From: an uncultured Methylomirabilota bacterium
GTDB taxonomy: Bacteria; Methylomirabilota; Methylomirabilia; Methylomirabilales; 2-02-FULL-66-22
Assembly: GCA_963845565.1 (NCBI GenBank)
Contig: CAWJSJ010000001.1
Span: 448,001-512,000, forward strand
Direction of reading: 5' to 3'
DNA length: 64,000 bases
Below are positions 12,001 to 45,000 of this stretch, piece after piece. Made by a program: the position numbers. Each line of letters starts with the position of its first letter. The stretch's first letter is position 1.

Positions 12001-15000
12001 CGCGGAGGGGGCCGTGTCTTGGCGTCATAATGGGGAAGTGCCCGGCGCGCTGGTTGGGGCGGGCGTGAGAATGCGCCCCGATGTGCGTGGGCTCCTGCCT
12101 GTCGCTGCGGCTGCCGCCGCCGGGATACTGGTCGGCACGGCGATGGTGGCCACGCGGTTTGTCATCGGTCAGACGGCTCCCGCGTCGCTCGCGTTTCTGC
12201 GCTACCTCATCGGGTGCTGCTGCTTGGTCCCGCCGCTCCTGCTCTCTGGCGGTTTACATTTCGAGCGACGCGACCTGGTTCCCATCGGTCTGCTCGGGAT
12301 CACCCAGTTCGGCATCCTGATCGCCCTGCTGAATTTCGCGCTGCAATACATTCCGTCGGGTCGCGCGGCCCTGATATTCGCCACCGTGCCCCTGCTGACG
12401 ATGCTGCTGGCAACACTCCTCGGACAAGAGCGACTCACCGTGGCGAAGACCCTGGGGGTGCTCGTTACCATCGTCGGGGTGGCTTTCGCGCTCGGCGACA
12501 AGGCGGTGGGATCGGGTGGCGCGGCCCACCAGTGGGTTGGAGAACTTGCCGTGCTGGCGAGCGCCCTCTGCGGCGCCGTGTGTAGCGTCCTCTACCGACC
12601 GTACCTTCGCAAGTACCCGCCAGTGGCCGTCAGCGCGCTGGCCATGCTGTCTTCAGTCGGATTCCTGGCACTGCTCGCCGCCACGGAAGGCTTCTTCGAC
12701 GCGTGGCCCGCCTTTACCCCCGGCGGGTGGCTCGCCATCCTGTTCATCGGCGCGAGCAGCGGGATCGGCTACTATCTCTGGCTATGGGCGCTGAATCACA
12801 CGACCGCGACCAAGGTCACCGTGTTCCTGGCGCTCAGCCCCATCACGGCCGCTGTGCTGGGCGCTGTGTTCCTCGCAGAACTACTGTCGCCGATGTCCTG
12901 GCTCGGGATCGTCGGCGTTGGGCTCGGCCTGTGGGTTGCGCACCGGGACGACTCTTTGGCGGTGGTCCCCGGCGGAAAGCGGGCGTGAATCCGGCGGATG
13001 ACAAATCGCCAGGGACCGCGCGGGGGGATGCGATGCGCCAGTAGCACTGAACCGGGTCAAGGGCAAATCTGATGGTTAGCGGGGCATATTTCGAACATTT
13101 CCCCCCCCGTTTGTAGTCGCACGTCCTCCTTGTAACAACTCTGATCCAATGCGCACTGTTCGTTGGTAATCCGCGCCGTTGATGTGCTACGATCCGCCCC
13201 CAAGGCGATCCCGTAAGGATCTGGGTGTCGGTGTTCGGACGGGACCATGCAGGAGCGATATGCCGAGTCGGTTGATCATCGTATTGAGCGTCCTGTATCC
13301 CGTGGTGGTGTACGTTGGGGGCCGGTATTTTCCGCCGCAAGCGCTCGCGCTGGTCCTTGCGCTGGTCGTCCTGACGCGCAGGACGGGTGCCTTCGGCGTC
13401 CGGATCGGCCCCTGGTCGGTGGCGTGCGGTCTGATTCTGGCCGTTCTGGCGTTCGGACTCAACGACGCGCTGCCGCTCAAGATGTATCCCGTGGCGGTGA
13501 ACGCATCCCTGCTGGCGATCTTTGCCTCCAGCCTGAGATACCCGCCCCCCATCGCCGAGCGCATCGCCCGCATCCGCGTTCCCGACCTTCCGCCGGAGGC
13601 GGTGGCGTACACGCGCAAGGTGACGCAGGCGTGGTGCGCCTTTTTCGTGGTGAATGCGTTGGTCGCCTTGTGGACCGCCACCCGGTGGCCGGTCCAGGCG
13701 TGGTTCTACTACAACGGGATCATCGCCTATCTCCTGGTCGGGGTCATGTTCGGCGCTGAGTGGCTGGTGCGGCGACGCGTGCTGGCGGGGTACCATTGGT
13801 GAGGAGGGCGAAGGCATCGCGGCAGTCGCAGATCCAAGGGGAACACGGGGCATGCGATGAGAGTGCTCCTGCTACGACCGGATCCCGGTAACGAGCGCTT
13901 CGGCCTGGGGCCGTTTTTTCGGGTGGAGCCGCTCGGCCTGGAGTACATCGGGGCGGCGCTCCGCGCTTGCGGCCACGAGCCGTGGATCGCGGATCTGCGG
14001 TTTCGTCCGGGCCTGGACACCTGGATCCGGCGCACCCGGCCCCAGTTGGTCGGCATCTCCTGCCTGCATTCACTCGAATACGACCGAGTGCGCGCGACCG
14101 CCCGGGCGGTCCGGCGGGCGGCGCCGGAGGCGTTCGTTCTGGTCGGGGGGCATGCGGCGGCGGCATTCCCGCGGCCGCTCGAATGCGACGAGGTTGATGC
14201 CATCTGCCTTGACGACGGCGAGGAGATCGTGCCGGCCCTGGTCGAGGCGATCGAGCGCGGTGCCCCCCTCGACATGCTGCCGGGGCTCCGACTGCGAATG
14301 GGCGGCGAGTGGCTCGCCACGCCTCCCCGGCCACGGCAGACCGGTCTGGATCTTGTACCCCTCCCGGCGCGCGACCTGGTCGAGCAACACCGGAATGGCT
14401 ATCACTGCCTGCTCTTCAAGCCGATCTGGCTGGTCGAGACGGCACGTGGCTGCCCGTATCGGTGCAGCTTTTGCTCGGTCTGGCAACTCTATGATCGTGC
14501 CTACCGGGAACGGTCCGTGGCGGCGGTGGCGGAGGACTTCGCCTCCGCCGGAGACGCCGTCTTCGTTGCGGACGACCTCTTCTGGCACCATCCGGCACGG
14601 AGCCGCGAACTCGCCGAGGCGCTCCGTAAACGTGGCGTGTCGAAGCGCTGGATCCTGGTGCAGACTCGGACCGACCTCATCTCGCGCCAGACGGAACTCC
14701 TCGAGGTGTGGCGGCCTCTGGCGAAGGATTTTGACATCTTCTTCGGGTTTGAGGCGGCCAGCGACGCCGGCCTCTCCCAGGTGGACAAAGACGCAGGGGT
14801 CGGGGCAAGCCTCGAGGCGGTGCGCATCGCCCGGTCCCTGGGTTACGGGGTCAACGGGAACTTCCTGATCGATCCCGACTGGACGGAGACCCATTTCGCG
14901 GAGCTGTGGGATTTCGTGGCGCGCCACGATCTCCGCCGGGCGGGATTCACCATCCTGACGCCGCTGCCGGGCACCGAATTTTTCGATCGGCTGGCCCCGC

Positions 15001-42000: not shown

Positions 42001-45000
42001 GAGGTCTGGCTTGGGCGCCCCGCCAGGCGGATCCTCCTGGAAGGCGGGCGGTGTACCCGCGTCCTGGCCGACGACGGTGCGGAGTTTCCCGCCAGGCACG
42101 TCGTGTCGAACGCCGACTTCCGGGAAACCTTCGGACGTCTGATCGGGGGGGCCGTGGGCGGAGCCGTCCTCGCGGGTGCTCGCGAGCGACCGCTCTCGCC
42201 GTCGTTCTTTGTTGCGTATGCGGGAGTCCGCAAGGATACCGGGCGGCACGGCGCCTCGAGCATCGGATCCTTCGGAGACTTCGATCTGGATGCGTTTCTG
42301 GACCGGTATATGCCCTTCTCGGACGCGGATGCGCTCGGCGTGACCATCCCCACAGTGGAGGACCCCAGTCTGGCCCCCCCGGGACACGATGTCGTGGTGG
42401 TCCACGAACTCATCCCCAACGGCTACCCGTGTGATTGGACCCGAGCGAAGAGTGCCCGCCTGGACCACGTGCTCCGCAAGGCCGAGCGGGTTCTGCCGGG
42501 ATTGACGGAACGGGTGGTCTCCCGTGACGCTGCTACCCCCTCGACACTGGAGCGGTACACCCGGAATGCGGGGGGTGCCGCGTATGGTTGGGACCAAACC
42601 CCGCACCCGTTCCGGGTCCGCCATGGGATCGACAATTTGCATCTGGCTGGGCACTGGGCGGAAGCCGGCGGCGGCGTCCTGGCCGCCGCCTACGCCGGGA
42701 TGCGGGTTGCCGCCAGGATCATCGAGGCCGGCGCATGAGTCGAAGCAACTCGGTCGCCGCAGTCATCGCCGCCTACAACGCCCGGGAACGGATCGCCGAG
42801 GTCATCACGGGAGCCTTTCGTCATGTGCGGACCGTGATCGTTGCGGACGACGGCTCGACGGACGGGACGGCGCAGGTCGCCAAGGAGGCGGGCGCCGAGG
42901 TGATCGTGTTGTCGGAGAATCGCGGGAAGGGCAACGCGCTTCGAGTCCTCTTCGCCGAGGCCCGGAGACGCGGACTGTCTGCGGTGATCGCGCTCGATGC
43001 CGACGGCCAGCACGACCCGGACGACATTCCCGCCTTTCTCGGAGTTCACCGCGACCACCCCGACGCGATCCTCACCGGGTCGCGGATGGGGGCTCCGGAC
43101 CGCATCCCGCGCCACCGGCGCAATTCGATGGTGGTGGCGCGCTTCTTCATCTCCCTGGCCGCCAATCAGTTCATCGAAGATACCCAATGCGGGTTCCGCC
43201 TGTATCCCCTCTCGGCGCTCGAGGCGCTCTCCCTCCACCGGGAGCGGTATGTGACCGAGACCGAGATCCTGCTCAAGGCGGGGGACTCGGGACGGGCGAT
43301 CCGATCCCTCCCCATCAAGGCGCTGTACCCGCCCGGACACCCAACCCACTTCCGGTCCGTCCCGGACGTCGCCGCCATCTCCGTCTACGTGATCTCCTAT
43401 CTGATGGTGAAGTGGGGAATCGAAGGGCTGCGACCCGGCGTCGTCAATACGTACCGGGGGGCGGGTACGGCGCGCGATCGGTTTTCTCTCTCGCCCGGGT
43501 GGGATCGCGCCTTCGAAGTCTTCACGCTCTGTGCATCCCTCCCGCTGACCATGCTGTATGGCGCATGGTACTACCTGGCCCGCTGGTGCGGCCTTCCGGT
43601 CCTCCAGAGCTTGGCGCGGAGCGAAATCCCGGTGGGGAGGCTGCTCTTGTCCGTCCTGTTGCTCCCGGGACTGCTGGCGGTGTCGATCGTGGATCTGCTC
43701 GGAAACCGGTTGGGGATGCGTCCGGACCTCACGACCGGTTTCGTCCGTCGGTACTATCTGAACCCCTGGACGTGGCGATAAGGATATCGGCCCGAGGGAC
43801 GGTCCGGCTCCGGAGGCGCTCTGGCAGGGCAGGCTCCCGGGGCGTGGTTCAGGCCGCGGGGCGCACCGACGACCTGCGAGGGGCGGGCAGGATCACGACG
43901 GCATTCGAGATTGTCCGAAAGAACACGCCTTTCCGGGGTTGCGGTCCTCGGCGGCGTTTTTCACTTTCCGTCCGGGAGATACTTGCCTATAGTGACCCCG
44001 GCGTTTCGCGGTTTCCATTAACCCCGCGCGGCAGACGCGCGCAGCAGGAGGAGAGGGTCCATGGCGTTGATGATCAATGATGAGTGCAGCAGTTGCGGTG
44101 CCTGCGAGGCGGAGTGCCCGAACACGGCCATCGCCGAGGGAACGGATCATTACATGATCAACCCCGACCTGTGCACGGAATGTGTCGGCTTCTTTGCCGA
44201 GCCGCAGTGCACGAGTGTCTGTCCGACCGATAGCATCGTCCCCGATCCCGCTCGGAAAGAGGGCAAGGATGCCCTGCTGGCCAAGTTTAAGAAGATCAAT
44301 CCGAACAAGGAGCCGGTGCTGAGCTAGATCCAATCCGCGCTTTCTCCTTGACGGGGTCGGGGATGCCCGGGCATTCTTGGCCCCGTCGTTTTTTTGTTGG
44401 CTGAGGGGCCGTGCGGGAGGCGCGGGCGTGTGCGGGGCCATCGTCGATGCGGTGGGTGTCCACATCGGCGCCGGGATCGGCGGGGCCTCGGGCAGTCGAA
44501 TCGCGTACGCCGCGGACCGAGCGCTCTCTCTCGTGCGTGGAGCCGATGACGATCGTCGGCGCGCGTCACAAGGCATCGGCGTGCGCTTCGACGTGACCCT
44601 GCGGCGCTTCTAGGGGCGTTGATGCCGTCGGGAGCTGCACTGACGGTCCTGCTGCGGCCCGACGTGCTGGGCGATCCGATCACCGCGGACGGACTGCTGA
44701 TGCTGGTCATCCGATGCATGTGCATGGCGCTGGACGTCAAACGGCTCCGGATCGCGAATCGCGTGCGGGCGTCGGTCGCGGTGGTGGCGCGCAAAACCTT
44801 CCGCTTGTCCCCGGGGTGGTGAACGGTGCGTAGGCTTCCCGTCGCGCTTCTCGTCCTGGCCCACACGGTCGTCGACGCCTCGCAAAACATCCTGCCCGTG
44901 GTCCTCCCGCTCCTGGTGGCGCGGTTCCAGCTCAGCTACTCTCAGGCCGGATTGGCTGCGGCGCTTCTGAACATCTCGTCGTCGCTCATTCAGCCGCTAT

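Follow-up and report, generated by a model that had tools for sequence, protein, structure and literature searches.

The phylum Acidobacteriota includes proven producers of brGDGTs. The passages of Sahonero-Canavesi et al. 2022 (PMC13159169) considered here report no Tes homologue in the screened diabolic-acid producers, Tes homologues in only three of 14 iso-diabolic-acid-producing Acidobacteria, and the formation of bacterial membrane-spanning lipids by Mss, an unrelated radical SAM enzyme; the first-pass annotation of our locus had cited these passages accurately. GDGT-MAS, in the portion of PMC9433317 that describes it, binds bacterial phosphatidic acid and does not select for the head group. 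For gene clusters, we compared the locus with the descriptions given in the APEL preprint and in parts of Rattray 2009 and of the amxFabF preprint.

The cluster lies at 13260-43781 of the window, that is, the whole 64,000-nucleotide stretch of DNA analyzed, and every component named in the first-pass annotation was found in its place (Table 1). By our own count, all 27 gene models are co-directional and most overlap, the junctions being overlaps of 1-11 bp or short gaps, of which the widest measure 248 bp (g21/g22) and 202 bp (g12/g13). The earlier gene list contained the named families and lacked six genes: the small membrane protein g01, the alpha/beta hydrolase g09, the TPR protein g11, the FlxY/PaaK-like ligase g18, the CrtI/CrtISO-like flavoenzyme g26 and, as a cluster gene, the NodB-type deacetylase g12.

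Table 1. Genes of the lipid cluster in window coordinates
Gene	Position	Strand	Assignment	Family and structure matches
g01	13260-13802	+	180-aa membrane protein, about 4 hydrophobic segments; possibly ApeG/COG4648-like	
g02	13857-15302	+	B12-binding radical SAM, HpnR-like at superfamily level	PF02310, PF04055; TIGR04367 HpnR 232 bits, far below cut-off 650
g03	15364-16257	+	LpxL/LPLAT-type acyltransferase	PF03279, E 7.4e-37
g04	16288-17817	+	Tes/GDGT-MAS-family radical SAM enzyme, clustered bacterial clade	
g05	17840-18562	+	LolA-like periplasmic lipid carrier, signal-peptide-like N-terminus	PF03548, E 2e-18; LolA2_flexi below cut-off
g06	18552-19655	+	Radical SAM/SPASM enzyme	PF04055, PF13186
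g07	19652-21007	+	B12-binding radical SAM	PF02310, PF04055; best NCBIfam BchE 102, HpnJ 100 bits, both far below cut-offs
g08	21004-22185	+	ATP-grasp carboxylate-amine ligase	PF15632, PF02786, PF02655; ESM-Atlas clusters 'carboxylate--amine ligase', 0.98
g09	22187-23242	+	Alpha/beta hydrolase; N-terminus signal- or lipoprotein-like (read by eye)	PF00561, E 2.8e-21
g10	23265-24620	+	B12-binding radical SAM	PF02310, PF04055; best NCBIfam HpnJ 94.7 bits, below cut-off 577
g11	24657-25634	+	Secreted TPR protein, hydrophobic segment at residues 4-28	Weak TPR Pfam matches
g12	25631-26557	+	NodB-type polysaccharide deacetylase with DUF3473	PF01522, PF11959; TIGR03006 261.8 bits, just short of cut-off 276.2
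g13/g14	26760-29062	+	Ketosynthase and chain-length-factor-like partner, pair 1	FabF-type Pfam/NCBIfam; closest solved structures FabF proteins
g15	29059-30195	+	Class I SAM methyltransferase	PF13649, PF08241
g16/g17	30188-32358	+	Ketosynthase and chain-length-factor-like partner, pair 2	Family matches
g18	32352-33668	+	FlxY/PaaK-like adenylate-forming ligase (starter activation)	NF053551 FlxY E 1.6e-118, below cut-off 520; PaaK 195 bits
g19	33665-34735	+	Radical SAM/SPASM enzyme	PF04055, PF13186
g20	34746-36110	+	'Lipid biosynthesis B12-binding/radical SAM protein', ladderane-cluster family	TIGR04072; closest solved structure TsrM 6WTE, E 5.8e-40
g21	36196-36924	+	FabG-type ketoreductase	TIGR01830 282.8, FlxB 251.5 bits, both below cut-off
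g22	37173-37430	+	ACP	PF00550
g23	37435-37860	+	FabZ-type dehydratase	NF000582 FabZ 123.4 bits, cut-off 113
g24	37857-38786	+	Class I SAM methyltransferase	PF13489, E 3.4e-24
g25	38786-41296	+	MMPL/RND (HpnN/HAE3-like) lipid exporter, about 11 hydrophobic segments	PF03176; TIGR03480 HpnN 240 bits, below cut-off 752
g26	41293-42738	+	CrtI/CrtISO-family flavin oxidoreductase ('phytoene dehydrogenase-like')	PF01593; TIGR02730 165.9, TIGR02734 143.7 bits, both below cut-off
g27	42735-43781	+	GT2 glycosyltransferase, polyprenyl-/lipid-phosphate hexose-transferase type; C-terminal membrane segment, residues 297-325	PF00535, E 6.8e-23; best NCBIfam PpgS 71 bits, below cut-off 370

The match of g04 to the Tes model NF045702 was reproduced at 474.9 bits (cut-off 450, model positions 3-480 of 486), a margin of only 25 bits. 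Its alignment with the GDGT-MAS structure 7TOL is full-length (residues 20-503, E 8.5e-109), and all six metal-site motifs, defined from the relevant passages of PMC9433317, were found, those of all four metal sites being kept. The rubredoxin-type, N-terminal, radical SAM and C-terminal (Met439-equivalent) motifs are present in g04 and in 27-28 of the 28 proteins of its clade. Because of this full-length alignment and the retained motifs of the four metal sites, tail-to-tail coupling is predicted as the most likely chemistry of g04.

When the profile search of contigs was repeated, it returned the same counts of g04 relatives in GTDB species genomes as before (220, with 80 kept). We then placed the 27 cluster proteins by tblastn on the 80 kept Tes loci, 27 of them clustered and 53 outside. 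The neighbor counts reported earlier were recovered for the acyltransferase (25 of the 27 clustered loci, with g03 directly upstream of Tes), the ATP-grasp g08 (19, including the minimal Deferrimicrobia form), the deacetylase g12 (15), the SPASM enzyme g06 (13, namely Methylomirabilales- and Nitrospirota-labelled loci and L012) and the B12-binding radical SAM enzyme g07 (11). The recurrence of LolA also stands, at 24 clustered loci instead of 18, probably a difference in threshold. No acyltransferase gene was detected by tblastn at the 53 outside loci, which are mostly Acidobacteriota-labelled; one of them (L050) has a weak LolA-like match with 27% identity on the opposite strand.

A Dissulfurispiraceae genome shares 22 of the 27 genes, which keep their order and strand there, at 31-60% identity. 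A Deferrimicrobium genome has the cluster parts rearranged, with two sub-operons kept within approximately 40 kb; loci of the Deferrimicrobia form carry the PKS genes in a different operon from the Tes cassette, and the two modules are therefore more loosely coupled there. Individual genes vary in their presence and position. Orthologs of g01 lie upstream in L001-L003 and L005; g02 is missing in L001 and L005 and has a 72%-identical ortholog in the Deferrimicrobium export operon; g09 is missing in L001 and L002, and in G001 it follows the GT2 gene and is encoded on the other strand. The g15 ortholog (49-50% identical) follows the deacetylase in Deferrimicrobia-type loci, and the g19 ortholog in G001 is 57% identical. 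The clustered Tes proteins group in a single clade with a support of 100, to which the context-free acidobacterial Tes do not belong, and one clade member (L008) has Tes alone on a 4.7-kb contig. A g20-type enzyme (E<=4e-51) was found in 10 of 10 genomes with clustered Tes versus one of five with context-free Tes, these relatives being non-independent samples. Conserved order, the neighbors of Tes, g20-type co-occurrence and the single Tes clade suggest that the cluster acts as one functional unit, and a single lipid pathway with a real Tes-family enzyme is supported.

Functionally, the locus combines a Tes cassette (LpxL-like acyltransferase, Tes, LolA, ATP-grasp, deacetylase) with a highly reducing type II PKS/FAS, and is no generic membrane-lipid operon. 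The latter module consists of two KS/CLF pairs, the FlxY-like ligase, ACP, KR and DH. The Cys-His-His triad is intact in g13 and g16, while all three residues are lost in g14 and the triad is likewise lost in g17. There is only one ACP in the cluster for both pairs, and an enoyl reductase was not found in its PKS/FAS gene set. The module resembles aryl-polyene/flexirubin clusters in its matches to FlxY, FlxB and LolA2_flexi (396, 251 and 69 bits, respectively), and the 'ladderane-type' clusters of Kuenenia and Desulfotalea in the TIGR04072 match of g20, whose score was reproduced at 396.3 bits (397.8 in a second run; cut-off 360). The aryl-polyene parallel extends to g03, which is assigned the role of ApeD, and to g01, which we liken to COG4648 proteins; Pfam and NCBIfam searches gave no family match for g01, and its nearest ESM-Atlas clusters ('COG4648 family protein', 0.93) provide a lead only. 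The proposed pathway follows both of these plans and adds a Tes-type step of tail coupling.

From gene families and their context, on which every step below is based, we propose as the product a dedicated radical-SAM-tailored acyl glycolipid whose tails are joined through C-C bonds by Tes and which is sent toward the outer membrane (probability about 0.5). The ligase g18 would load the dedicated ACP g22 with an activated carboxylic-acid starter, and the KS/CLF heterodimers g13/14 and g16/17, with g21 and g23, would make one or two dedicated chains, which would be unsaturated at first because the cluster has no enoyl reductase. An aryl-acid starter as in aryl polyenes, if used, would leave the free chain end without the terminal methyl needed by Tes chemistry. 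The flavoenzyme g26, two SAM methyltransferases, four cobalamin radical SAM and two SPASM enzymes may tailor the chains by saturation or isomerization, methylation and possibly cyclization; the earlier attribution of chain methylation to the B12-dependent enzymes is reasonable. Next, g03 would take over the ACP-bound chain and attach it to a glycero- or glyco-lipid acceptor, and g27, g12 and g08 may build an N-substituted hexosamine head group, from HexNAc through HexN to N-acyl or aminoacyl-HexN, a putative scheme built on family-level matches far below equivalog cut-offs (PpgS 71/370; TIGR03006 262/276). The Tes homolog g04 would then bind a lipid tail, take hydrogen off its terminal carbon and join a second tail to it by a C(sp3)-C(sp3) bond, giving a macrocyclic or dimeric (bola) lipid. 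Finally, the pump g25, the periplasmic carrier g05 and the secreted g09 and g11 would move the product toward the outer membrane; by analogy with ApeL/ApeM and HpnN such export is probable, and the LolA/MMPL route suggested previously is a sensible one.

The first-pass annotation had read the cluster as making a membrane-spanning, methyl-branched bacterial lipid of the brGDGT/diabolic-acid type, which would make Methylomirabilota a new source of brGDGTs. This reading is only partly supported: the lipid pathway holds, Tes coupling is the most likely chemistry, and methylation and export are reasonable, whereas a bulk membrane-spanning product of the brGDGT/diabolic-acid type is not supported. 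The cluster has its own PKS/FAS, a glycosyltransferase/deacetylase/ATP-grasp set and aryl-polyene-type export genes, and therefore points to a specialized envelope lipid instead of a remodelled housekeeping phospholipid. Further against a new brGDGT source, no HGD-D (PlsA/Ger) domain was found in the 98.7%-complete genome, the acidobacterial Tes homologs form a separate group with none of this gene context, and Tes (NF045702, E<=1e-30) occurs in only seven of the 21 genus genomes, a set that includes G000, and in 11 of 251 in the phylum sample; the earlier figures of 4/20 and 7/250 rest on PF23545.

The cluster-specific genes have no second copy in the host genome, which encodes housekeeping FabG, FabF and FabZ elsewhere. 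Single-copy specific genes and the restricted occurrence of Tes within the genus mark the cluster as accessory in character. Metatranscriptome libraries from three studies contain contigs that cover the cluster and span both the Tes-LolA and the LolA-SPASM junction, most of these contigs coming from roughly 92-95% relatives; they hint at expression, and DNA carry-over could also give such contigs.

In the specialized-lipid reading, g04, which is related to the archaeal enzyme that joins two lipid tails at their ends, belongs to a 27-gene pathway, and this offers a concrete way to learn what bacterial Tes homologs make.

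The first-pass annotation had described a run of 27 co-directional genes that includes a homologue of the archaeal tetraether lipid synthase Tes. This cluster is borne out by our analysis, which also reproduced the earlier scores and neighbour counts. Gene families were assigned by Pfam and NCBIfam scans and are listed in the table below. Most junctions in the cluster are overlaps of 1-11 bp or gaps of less than 90 bp, the widest gaps being 202 bp (between g12 and g13) and 248 bp (before the acyl carrier protein gene g22). The flanking genes are unrelated: upstream are genes for a MarR-GNAT protein and an EamA transporter, downstream one for an MFS transporter. 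At thresholds of E<=1e-15 and 50% cover, no second copy of the cluster-specific genes was detected in the host genome, whose housekeeping FabG/FabF and FabZ proteins are encoded elsewhere.

Features of the Tes-bearing cluster, its surroundings and related loci (window positions unless another genome, locus or contig is named; KS/CLF, ketosynthase/chain-length-factor-like)
Feature	Position	Strand	Assignment or observation
Cluster g01-g27	13260-43781	+	27 genes
g01		+	small membrane protein
g02		+	B12-radical SAM
g03		+	LpxL-type acyltransferase
g04		+	Tes
g05		+	LolA-like carrier
g06		+	SPASM radical SAM
g07		+	B12-radical SAM
g08		+	ATP-grasp; nearest protein clusters are carboxylate-amine ligase
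g09		+	alpha/beta hydrolase
g10		+	B12-radical SAM
g11		+	secreted TPR protein
g12		+	NodB-type deacetylase with DUF3473
g13/g14		+	KS/CLF pair
g15		+	methyltransferase
g16/g17		+	KS/CLF pair
g18		+	FlxY/PaaK-like ligase
g19		+	SPASM radical SAM
g20		+	B12-radical SAM, family TIGR04072
g21		+	FabG
g22		+	ACP
g23		+	FabZ
g24		+	methyltransferase
g25		+	MMPL exporter
g26		+	CrtI/CrtISO-like flavoenzyme
g27		+	GT2 glycosyltransferase
Low-GC stretch	46001-48000		GC falls to 0.577 (0.64-0.70 in surroundings)
ArsR-like HTH ORF	46642-47214
LptA-like gene (LptD_N domain) and rpoN (sigma-54)	50269-53397		downstream of cluster; ordinary envelope/regulation neighbourhood
Distant TIGR04072-like B12-radical SAM, host genome	G000:C2:1492233-1493633		270 bits, below cut-off; 30% identical to g20; other cluster genes absent nearby at the thresholds used
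g02-type B12-radical SAM, Deferrimicrobium genome G003	L083 48969-50411		72% identical to g02, the highest of the cluster genes there
g20 orthologue, genome of locus L001	G265:C14:9285-10646		broken across at least 4 frames, in-frame stops

The Tes homologue g04 scores 474.9 bits against the NCBIfam equivalog model NF045702, a small margin over the cut-off of 450, with a match to model positions 3-480 of 486, while the sister model TrsS gives 310 bits. It aligns over residues 20-503 with GDGT-MAS, the Tes of Methanocaldococcus jannaschii (MJ0619; 7TOL, 7TOM), at an E value of 8.5e-109 for 7TOL and about 40% identity over the full length. According to PMC9433317, the metal sites of GDGT-MAS comprise a rubredoxin-type CX2C...CX2H site, an N-terminal 4Fe-4S cluster on CX3CX2C and a histidine, the radical SAM CX3CX2C site, and a C-terminal cluster with the labile Met439. 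A motif search located all four metal-site motifs in g04, at residues 26, 92, 117, 352, 458 and 474, and they are kept in 27-28 of the 28 members of its clade. Like GDGT-MAS, g04 thus keeps the rubredoxin-type site, two auxiliary 4Fe-4S sites and the radical SAM site, and it shares family and domain order with the archaeal Tes described by Zeng et al. 2022. Unlike archaeal Tes, it belongs to a bacterium without archaeol-type lipid genes, its gene lies within a 27-gene PKS/acyltransferase/export cluster, and its clade stands apart from the remaining rows of our tree, among which the archaeal rows are unlabelled.

GDGT-MAS can bind phosphatidic acid from E. coli and is indifferent to the head group (PMC9433317), which makes a bacterial diacyl lipid a credible substrate for g04. 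A search of the host genome for the archaeol-type pathway returned no real GGGPS/PcrB, the sole match being a 44-residue fragment at 23.6 bits, and the substrate of g04 must therefore be a bacterial lipid. An archaeal-type lipid was accordingly rejected as substrate. Judged from its sequence, the coupling of two lipid tail ends through a C(sp3)-C(sp3) bond by g04 is plausible.

The lack of a real GGGPS also speaks against a reading in which the lipids tailored by the cluster are hopanoids or other isoprenoids and not acyl lipids. HpnI, HpnK, HpnJ, HpnR and HpnN are hopanoid side-chain and transport proteins that act in glycosyltransfer, deacetylation, cobalamin-dependent radical SAM tailoring and MMPL export, and the pathway logic of the window cluster is similar. 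Moreover, archaeal Tes works on isoprenoid tails, and the best NCBIfam names in the cluster include HpnR (232 bits), HpnJ (100 and 95 bits) and HpnN (240 bits). However, these scores are far below the respective cut-offs of 650, 577 and 752, so that the likeness is at superfamily level only; the window deacetylase is of the NodB type, and the cluster contains a full type II PKS/FAS set and neither a cyclase nor a prenyltransferase. We consider hopanoid or isoprenoid tailoring extremely unlikely and rejected it on the low Hpn scores and the complete PKS/FAS set.

Based on the best 80 of 220 Tes relatives, with one genome per species, we distinguish two kinds of bacterial Tes loci. Cluster context was found in 27 of the 80 loci, which are titled Methylomirabilales, Nitrospirota (Dissulfurispiraceae, Thermodesulfovibrionales) and Deferrimicrobia-type 'Deltaproteobacteria'. 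The acyltransferase lies directly upstream of Tes in 25 of these clustered loci and LolA downstream in 24, and the ATP-grasp (19), deacetylase (15), SPASM radical SAM (13) and B12-radical SAM (11) genes are also frequent; these counts are lower bounds because many contigs end early. The other 53 loci, mostly from Acidobacteriota, are context-free: none has the acyltransferase, ATP-grasp or deacetylase near Tes, and a weak LolA-like match, on the opposite strand, appears in one. Tes of the NF045702 type was identified in 7 of 21 genomes of the genus, in none of 15 genomes of the neighbouring family coded f2, and in 11 of 251 genomes of the phylum sample.

In a FastTree phylogeny of 147 rows, the clustered Tes proteins (n=28) form a single clade with support of 100 on a branch 0.29 long, nested within a larger bacterial group that also contains acidobacterial Tes. 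For this tree, every third non-clustered locus was kept (35 of 52 omitted), as were library representatives of 440-700 aa (48 of 150 fell outside); the tree is unrooted and its archaeal rows are unlabelled, so that it does not place the clade relative to archaeal Tes. The Acidobacteriota Tes of Koribacter and Solibacter (Zeng et al. 2022) are about 50% identical to g04, equal in length and furnished with the same metal motifs. In contrast to the window, however, their loci have no acyltransferase, ATP-grasp or deacetylase, and a g20-type radical SAM protein (E<=1e-50) occurs in one of five of their genomes. The clustered and the context-free acidobacterial clades probably differ in function.

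Several individual loci deserve mention. Three context-free loci (L029, L037 and L055) encode a second Tes paralogue, 30-32% identical to the main Tes and located about 2.1-2.4 kb upstream of it. In locus L008 (genome G266), a Tes of the clustered clade stands alone on a 4.7-kb contig in a bin labelled Pirellulales, from which an acyltransferase homologue was absent with the window query; this contig may be mis-binned. Locus L001 (CAVRZV010000014.1) is titled 'uncultured Bacteroidales bacterium', and its Tes is 95% identical to that of the window, its cluster is syntenic, and its Tes groups with the Methylomirabilales-labelled rows of the tree. Its label or binning is probably wrong. The split g20 orthologue of the same genome could be a pseudogene or reflect indel errors of long-read assembly.

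The conservation of gene order allowed us to ask how far the cluster behaves as one unit. Gene order and strand are conserved for 22 of the 27 genes, spanning the acyltransferase to GT2 genes, in a genome of Dissulfurispiraceae (G001; 31-60% identity), where a g09 homologue follows the GT2 gene on the opposite strand. In the Deferrimicrobium genome, one operon contains the acyltransferase, Tes, LolA, ATP-grasp, deacetylase and methyltransferase genes, and a second, about 33 kb away, the B12-radical SAM, ACP, methyltransferase, MMPL and GT2 genes; between the two, on the other strand, lie KS, ACP, B12-radical SAM, CrtI-like and FabG genes. The second operon is headed by the g02-type gene, which is missing in loci L001 and L005. 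All forms of the cluster retain the genes for the acyltransferase, Tes, LolA, ATP-grasp, deacetylase, MMPL and GT2 proteins, and we thus regard acyl transfer, head-group work, coupling and export as the invariant part of the pathway.

The Deferrimicrobium arrangement bears on whether two independent systems merely adjoin by chance in the window, namely a Tes cassette (g01-g12) and an aryl-polyene/ladderane-type PKS cluster (g13-g27). Such a division would agree with the 202-bp gap between g12 and g13, with the Deferrimicrobia-type loci, where other genes follow the cassette and the PKS genes lie on the opposite strand, and with the existence of TIGR04072-type clusters without Tes. However, the KS/CLF genes follow the deacetylase gene in all seven Methylomirabilales- or Nitrospirota-labelled loci that extend that far, and the full gene order is conserved across two phyla. 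The functions required for a complete aryl-polyene-type pathway are also divided over both halves, with the acyltransferase, LolA and COG4648-like proteins in the first and the ACP, KS, MMPL and glycosyltransferase proteins in the second. At the genome level, a g20-type radical SAM protein accompanies clustered Tes in 10 of 10 genomes (E<=4e-51) as opposed to one of five genomes with context-free Tes, these related genomes being non-independent samples. A chance juxtaposition is therefore very unlikely.

The KS/CLF module connects the cluster to two known cluster types. The Cys-His-His triad is intact in g13 and g16 and lost in g14 and g17, which marks them as two KS/CLF pairs of the sort known from highly reducing type II PKSs. 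The nearest solved structures of g13 and g14 are ordinary FabF proteins, with the ishigamide KS 6KXD and the heterodimer entry 9S5H lower, so this comparison does not separate PKS from FAS. All core genes of an aryl polyene-type cluster (KS, CLF, ACP, KR, DH and RND/MMPL transporter, following the list of the APEL preprint) are present. As described in that preprint, APEL/flexirubin clusters encode KS, CLF, ACPs, KR, DHs, an adenylating ligase and a methyltransferase, the ApeD acyltransferase that loads the chain onto a lysophospholipid, the ApeJ glycosyl/acyltransferase that builds a GalNAc-phosphate-glycerol head, the COG4648 membrane protein ApeG, the LolA-like ApeL and the MMPL pump ApeM. 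By family and description, the window has a counterpart to each component of the clusters of E. coli CFT073 and Xenorhabdus doucetiae. These include a KS/CLF type II PKS without enoyl reductase, an ACP, KR, DH, starter ligase, methyltransferase, LPLAT-type acyltransferase, glycosyltransferase, LolA-like carrier and MMPL exporter, as well as a small COG4648-like membrane protein (g01, matched to COG4648 at 0.93 by language-model search alone). Unlike those clusters, the window adds seven radical SAM enzymes, an ATP-grasp, a deacetylase and a CrtI-like enzyme. The matches to the flexirubin models are strong but all score below the cut-offs (FlxY 396 of 520, FlxB 251 of 340 and LolA2 69 of 125 bits), so that orthology to the flexirubin proteins is not indicated, and no tyrosine ammonia-lyase or chorismate-lyase family or other gene for aryl-acid supply was seen among the Pfam and NCBIfam matches of the cluster.

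The second cluster type is that of the 'unusual FASII' clusters of Kuenenia and Desulfotalea. Rattray 2009 and the amxFabF preprint describe in them FabF paralogues with dead active sites, a dedicated ACP and FabZ, radical SAM enzymes, a phytoene-dehydrogenase-like enzyme, a 'phenylacetyl-CoA ligase' and a new membrane protein. Measured against these descriptions, the window carries the ladderane-type feature set of a KS with an inactive FabF paralogue (the CLF), a dedicated ACP and FabZ, and a phytoene-dehydrogenase-like enzyme. It further shares with Kuenenia 'Cluster I' and Desulfotalea the TIGR04072 B12-radical SAM protein (g20 passes this model, which was made with such clusters in view, with 396.3 bits, or 397.8 in another scan, at a cut-off of 360), SAM methyltransferases, the 'phenylacetyl-CoA ligase' and a small membrane protein, and differs from them by the added Tes cassette and export genes. 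Desulfotalea has a similar cluster, yet ladderanes were undetected there (Rattray 2009); membership of this cluster type thus does not predict ladderanes, and nothing in the window cluster points to ladderanes or cyclobutane rings.

As a further comparison, we used five putative anammox genomes. PF18582 (HZS_alpha) is not anammox-specific, since it occurs in 71 of 401 genomes of the Planctomycetota sample, often with 10 or more large ORFs each; these five were therefore chosen by having one or two PF18582 open frames of about 810-840 aa in 2.5-4.4 Mb. TIGR04072 proteins are present in them (four of five at E<=1e-96), and no Tes homologue was found, the best match scoring 76 bits. With the identity of the five genomes inferred, this result is a hint that ladderane-type chemistry needs no Tes and that the Tes cassette is an addition specific to the Methylomirabilales, Nitrospirota and Deferrimicrobia-type lineages.

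Our preferred reading, to which we give a probability of about one half, is that the cluster makes a specialised lipid tailored by radical SAM enzymes, coupled at its tails by Tes and exported; we infer every step. A starter acid would be loaded on the ACP by the ligase g18, and dedicated chains, unsaturated at first, would be built by the two KS/CLF pairs with the KR and DH. These chains may then be tailored by the flavoenzyme, two SAM methyltransferases, four cobalamin-dependent and two SPASM radical SAM enzymes, and placed on a lipid acceptor by the acyltransferase. The GT2, deacetylase and ATP-grasp proteins would provide an N-substituted hexosamine head, Tes would join the ends of two tails, either in the same lipid or in separate lipids, and the MMPL, LolA and secreted proteins would carry the product outward. 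The weak points are the starter, since a chain ending in an aryl group would be a poor fit to Tes chemistry, the presence of only one ACP in the cluster, and the export target of the lipid, which is presumed by analogy.

Tes might instead join a polyketide piece of separate origin to a fatty chain or close a ring within one chain, with a monomeric, heavily tailored acyl lipid as product. The separate branch of the clade and the setting of g04 among six further radical SAM enzymes speak for such a role. Radical SAM-mediated ligation has been proposed for ladderane-type pathways in a Nat Prod Rep review, and the archaeal paralogue MA_1114 gave mere traces of macrocyclic archaeol (Zeng et al.). 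In contrast, the full-length identity of g04 to GDGT-MAS and the retention of all metal ligand motifs, including the labile-Met coupling site, argue against it, as does the lack of Tes beside TIGR04072 in the five putative anammox genomes. We therefore treat this alternative role as conceivable and rather unlikely.

Returning to the tail-coupled, exported lipid, we compared it with the product proposed in the first-pass annotation, a membrane-spanning, methyl-branched lipid of the brGDGT/diabolic-acid type. As a bulk core lipid, this would require Tes to couple iso-fatty-acyl tails and the B12-radical SAM enzymes to add methyls. The Tes family is genuine and its metal sites intact, four cobalamin-dependent and two SPASM radical SAM enzymes would suit methylation and ring formation, and a role of bacterial Tes homologues in brGDGT synthesis has been proposed (Zeng et al.). 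The record titles and run labels of the carriers also name lineages of anoxic sediment, wetland and groundwater. However, PF06050, the HGD-D domain of Ger/PlsA-type ether formation, has no match in the 98.7%-complete host genome, where controls responded (a search aimed at this ether route and not at Elb or Agps), and no ether-forming enzyme is encoded in the cluster. The cluster also brings its own KS/CLF, ACP and starter ligase in place of the housekeeping FAS, and its LolA/MMPL export and head-group genes typify specialised outer-membrane lipids. Further objections are the patchy distribution in genus and phylum, and the position of Acidobacteriota-type Tes outside the clade with the context missing (acyltransferase in 0 of 53 loci). 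The proven bacterial coupler is Mss, to which Tes is unrelated or only remotely related (Sahonero-Canavesi 2022); the proposed chemistry, radical SAM coupling of two acyl tails, is alike, while the host differs from the Mss/Ger route by having no Ger/PlsA-type domain. The earlier quotations from that paper proved accurate. Of the earlier proposal, tail coupling and radical SAM methylation remain plausible, but the assignment to a bulk core lipid has the dedicated PKS, the export and head-group genes, the missing Ger/PlsA domain, the patchy carriers and the separation from acidobacterial Tes against it, and we judge it unlikely.

The cluster also occurs in environmental data. At least half of the sampled words of window positions 15300-19700 were found in 14 DNA runs from 8 studies, mostly labelled as wetland, freshwater, sediment and soil metagenomes. 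Contigs from four metatranscriptome libraries (3 studies) matched 13260-33259; the uncovered parts of this stretch are uninformative, and the depth is unsuited to ranking genes. The pieces from one library (X15) are 232-412 nt long and 97-100% identical to the window, and those from the other three (X16-X18) are longer, about 92-95% identical and derived from relatives. Among the latter, one contig of 1,694 nt spans the Tes-LolA junction, and others, of 956 and 1,222 nt, span the LolA-SPASM junction. These contigs are compatible with co-transcription, and DNA carry-over is possible in such libraries.

Bacterial Tes homologues, aryl-polyene clusters and ladderane-type clusters are already known. 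The homologues have been suggested as makers of brGDGTs, which underlie widely used palaeotemperature and pH proxies, since 2022 (Zeng et al.), and the proven coupler Mss is a different enzyme. Our full-text literature search found no paper with a Tes homologue inside an aryl-polyene/ladderane-type cluster or beside a LolA/acyltransferase pair. For tetraether synthase in connection with ladderanes, aryl polyenes, LolA or lipid A acyltransferase, the search gave only a review with separate sections for Tes and ladderanes, and for Tes in Methylomirabilota, Nitrospirota, Rokubacteria or NC10 it gave nothing relevant. The terms Nitrospir-, NC10, Rokubacteria, Methylomirabil- and Deltaproteobacteria are absent from the text-searchable supplementary files of Zeng et al. 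The window contributes the cluster in its full form, with 27 genes, and the synteny of that form across phyla.

By its context, the clustered Tes clade belongs to a defined and transferable pathway that includes an acyltransferase expected to form the acceptor, a carrier and an exporter, and the product of a bacterial Tes thereby becomes addressable by cloning and lipidomics. The cluster also ties together Tes chemistry, export lipids of the aryl-polyene type and the 'ladderane-type' radical SAM FASII clusters, hitherto handled separately, the products of the last being known solely from anammox bacteria. For metagenome surveys, bacterial Tes matches should not all be counted as brGDGT potential. 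More speculatively, and with the odds against it, the Methylomirabilales, Nitrospirota and Deferrimicrobia cluster may make a new class of bola or macrocyclic lipids, with polyketide-type chains multiply methylated by cobalamin-dependent radical SAM enzymes, tails joined by Tes, and export to the outer membrane. If true, this would give a bacterial Tes its first demonstrated function, and would offer a candidate source of the orphan, heavily branched membrane-spanning lipids of anoxic waters and sediments.
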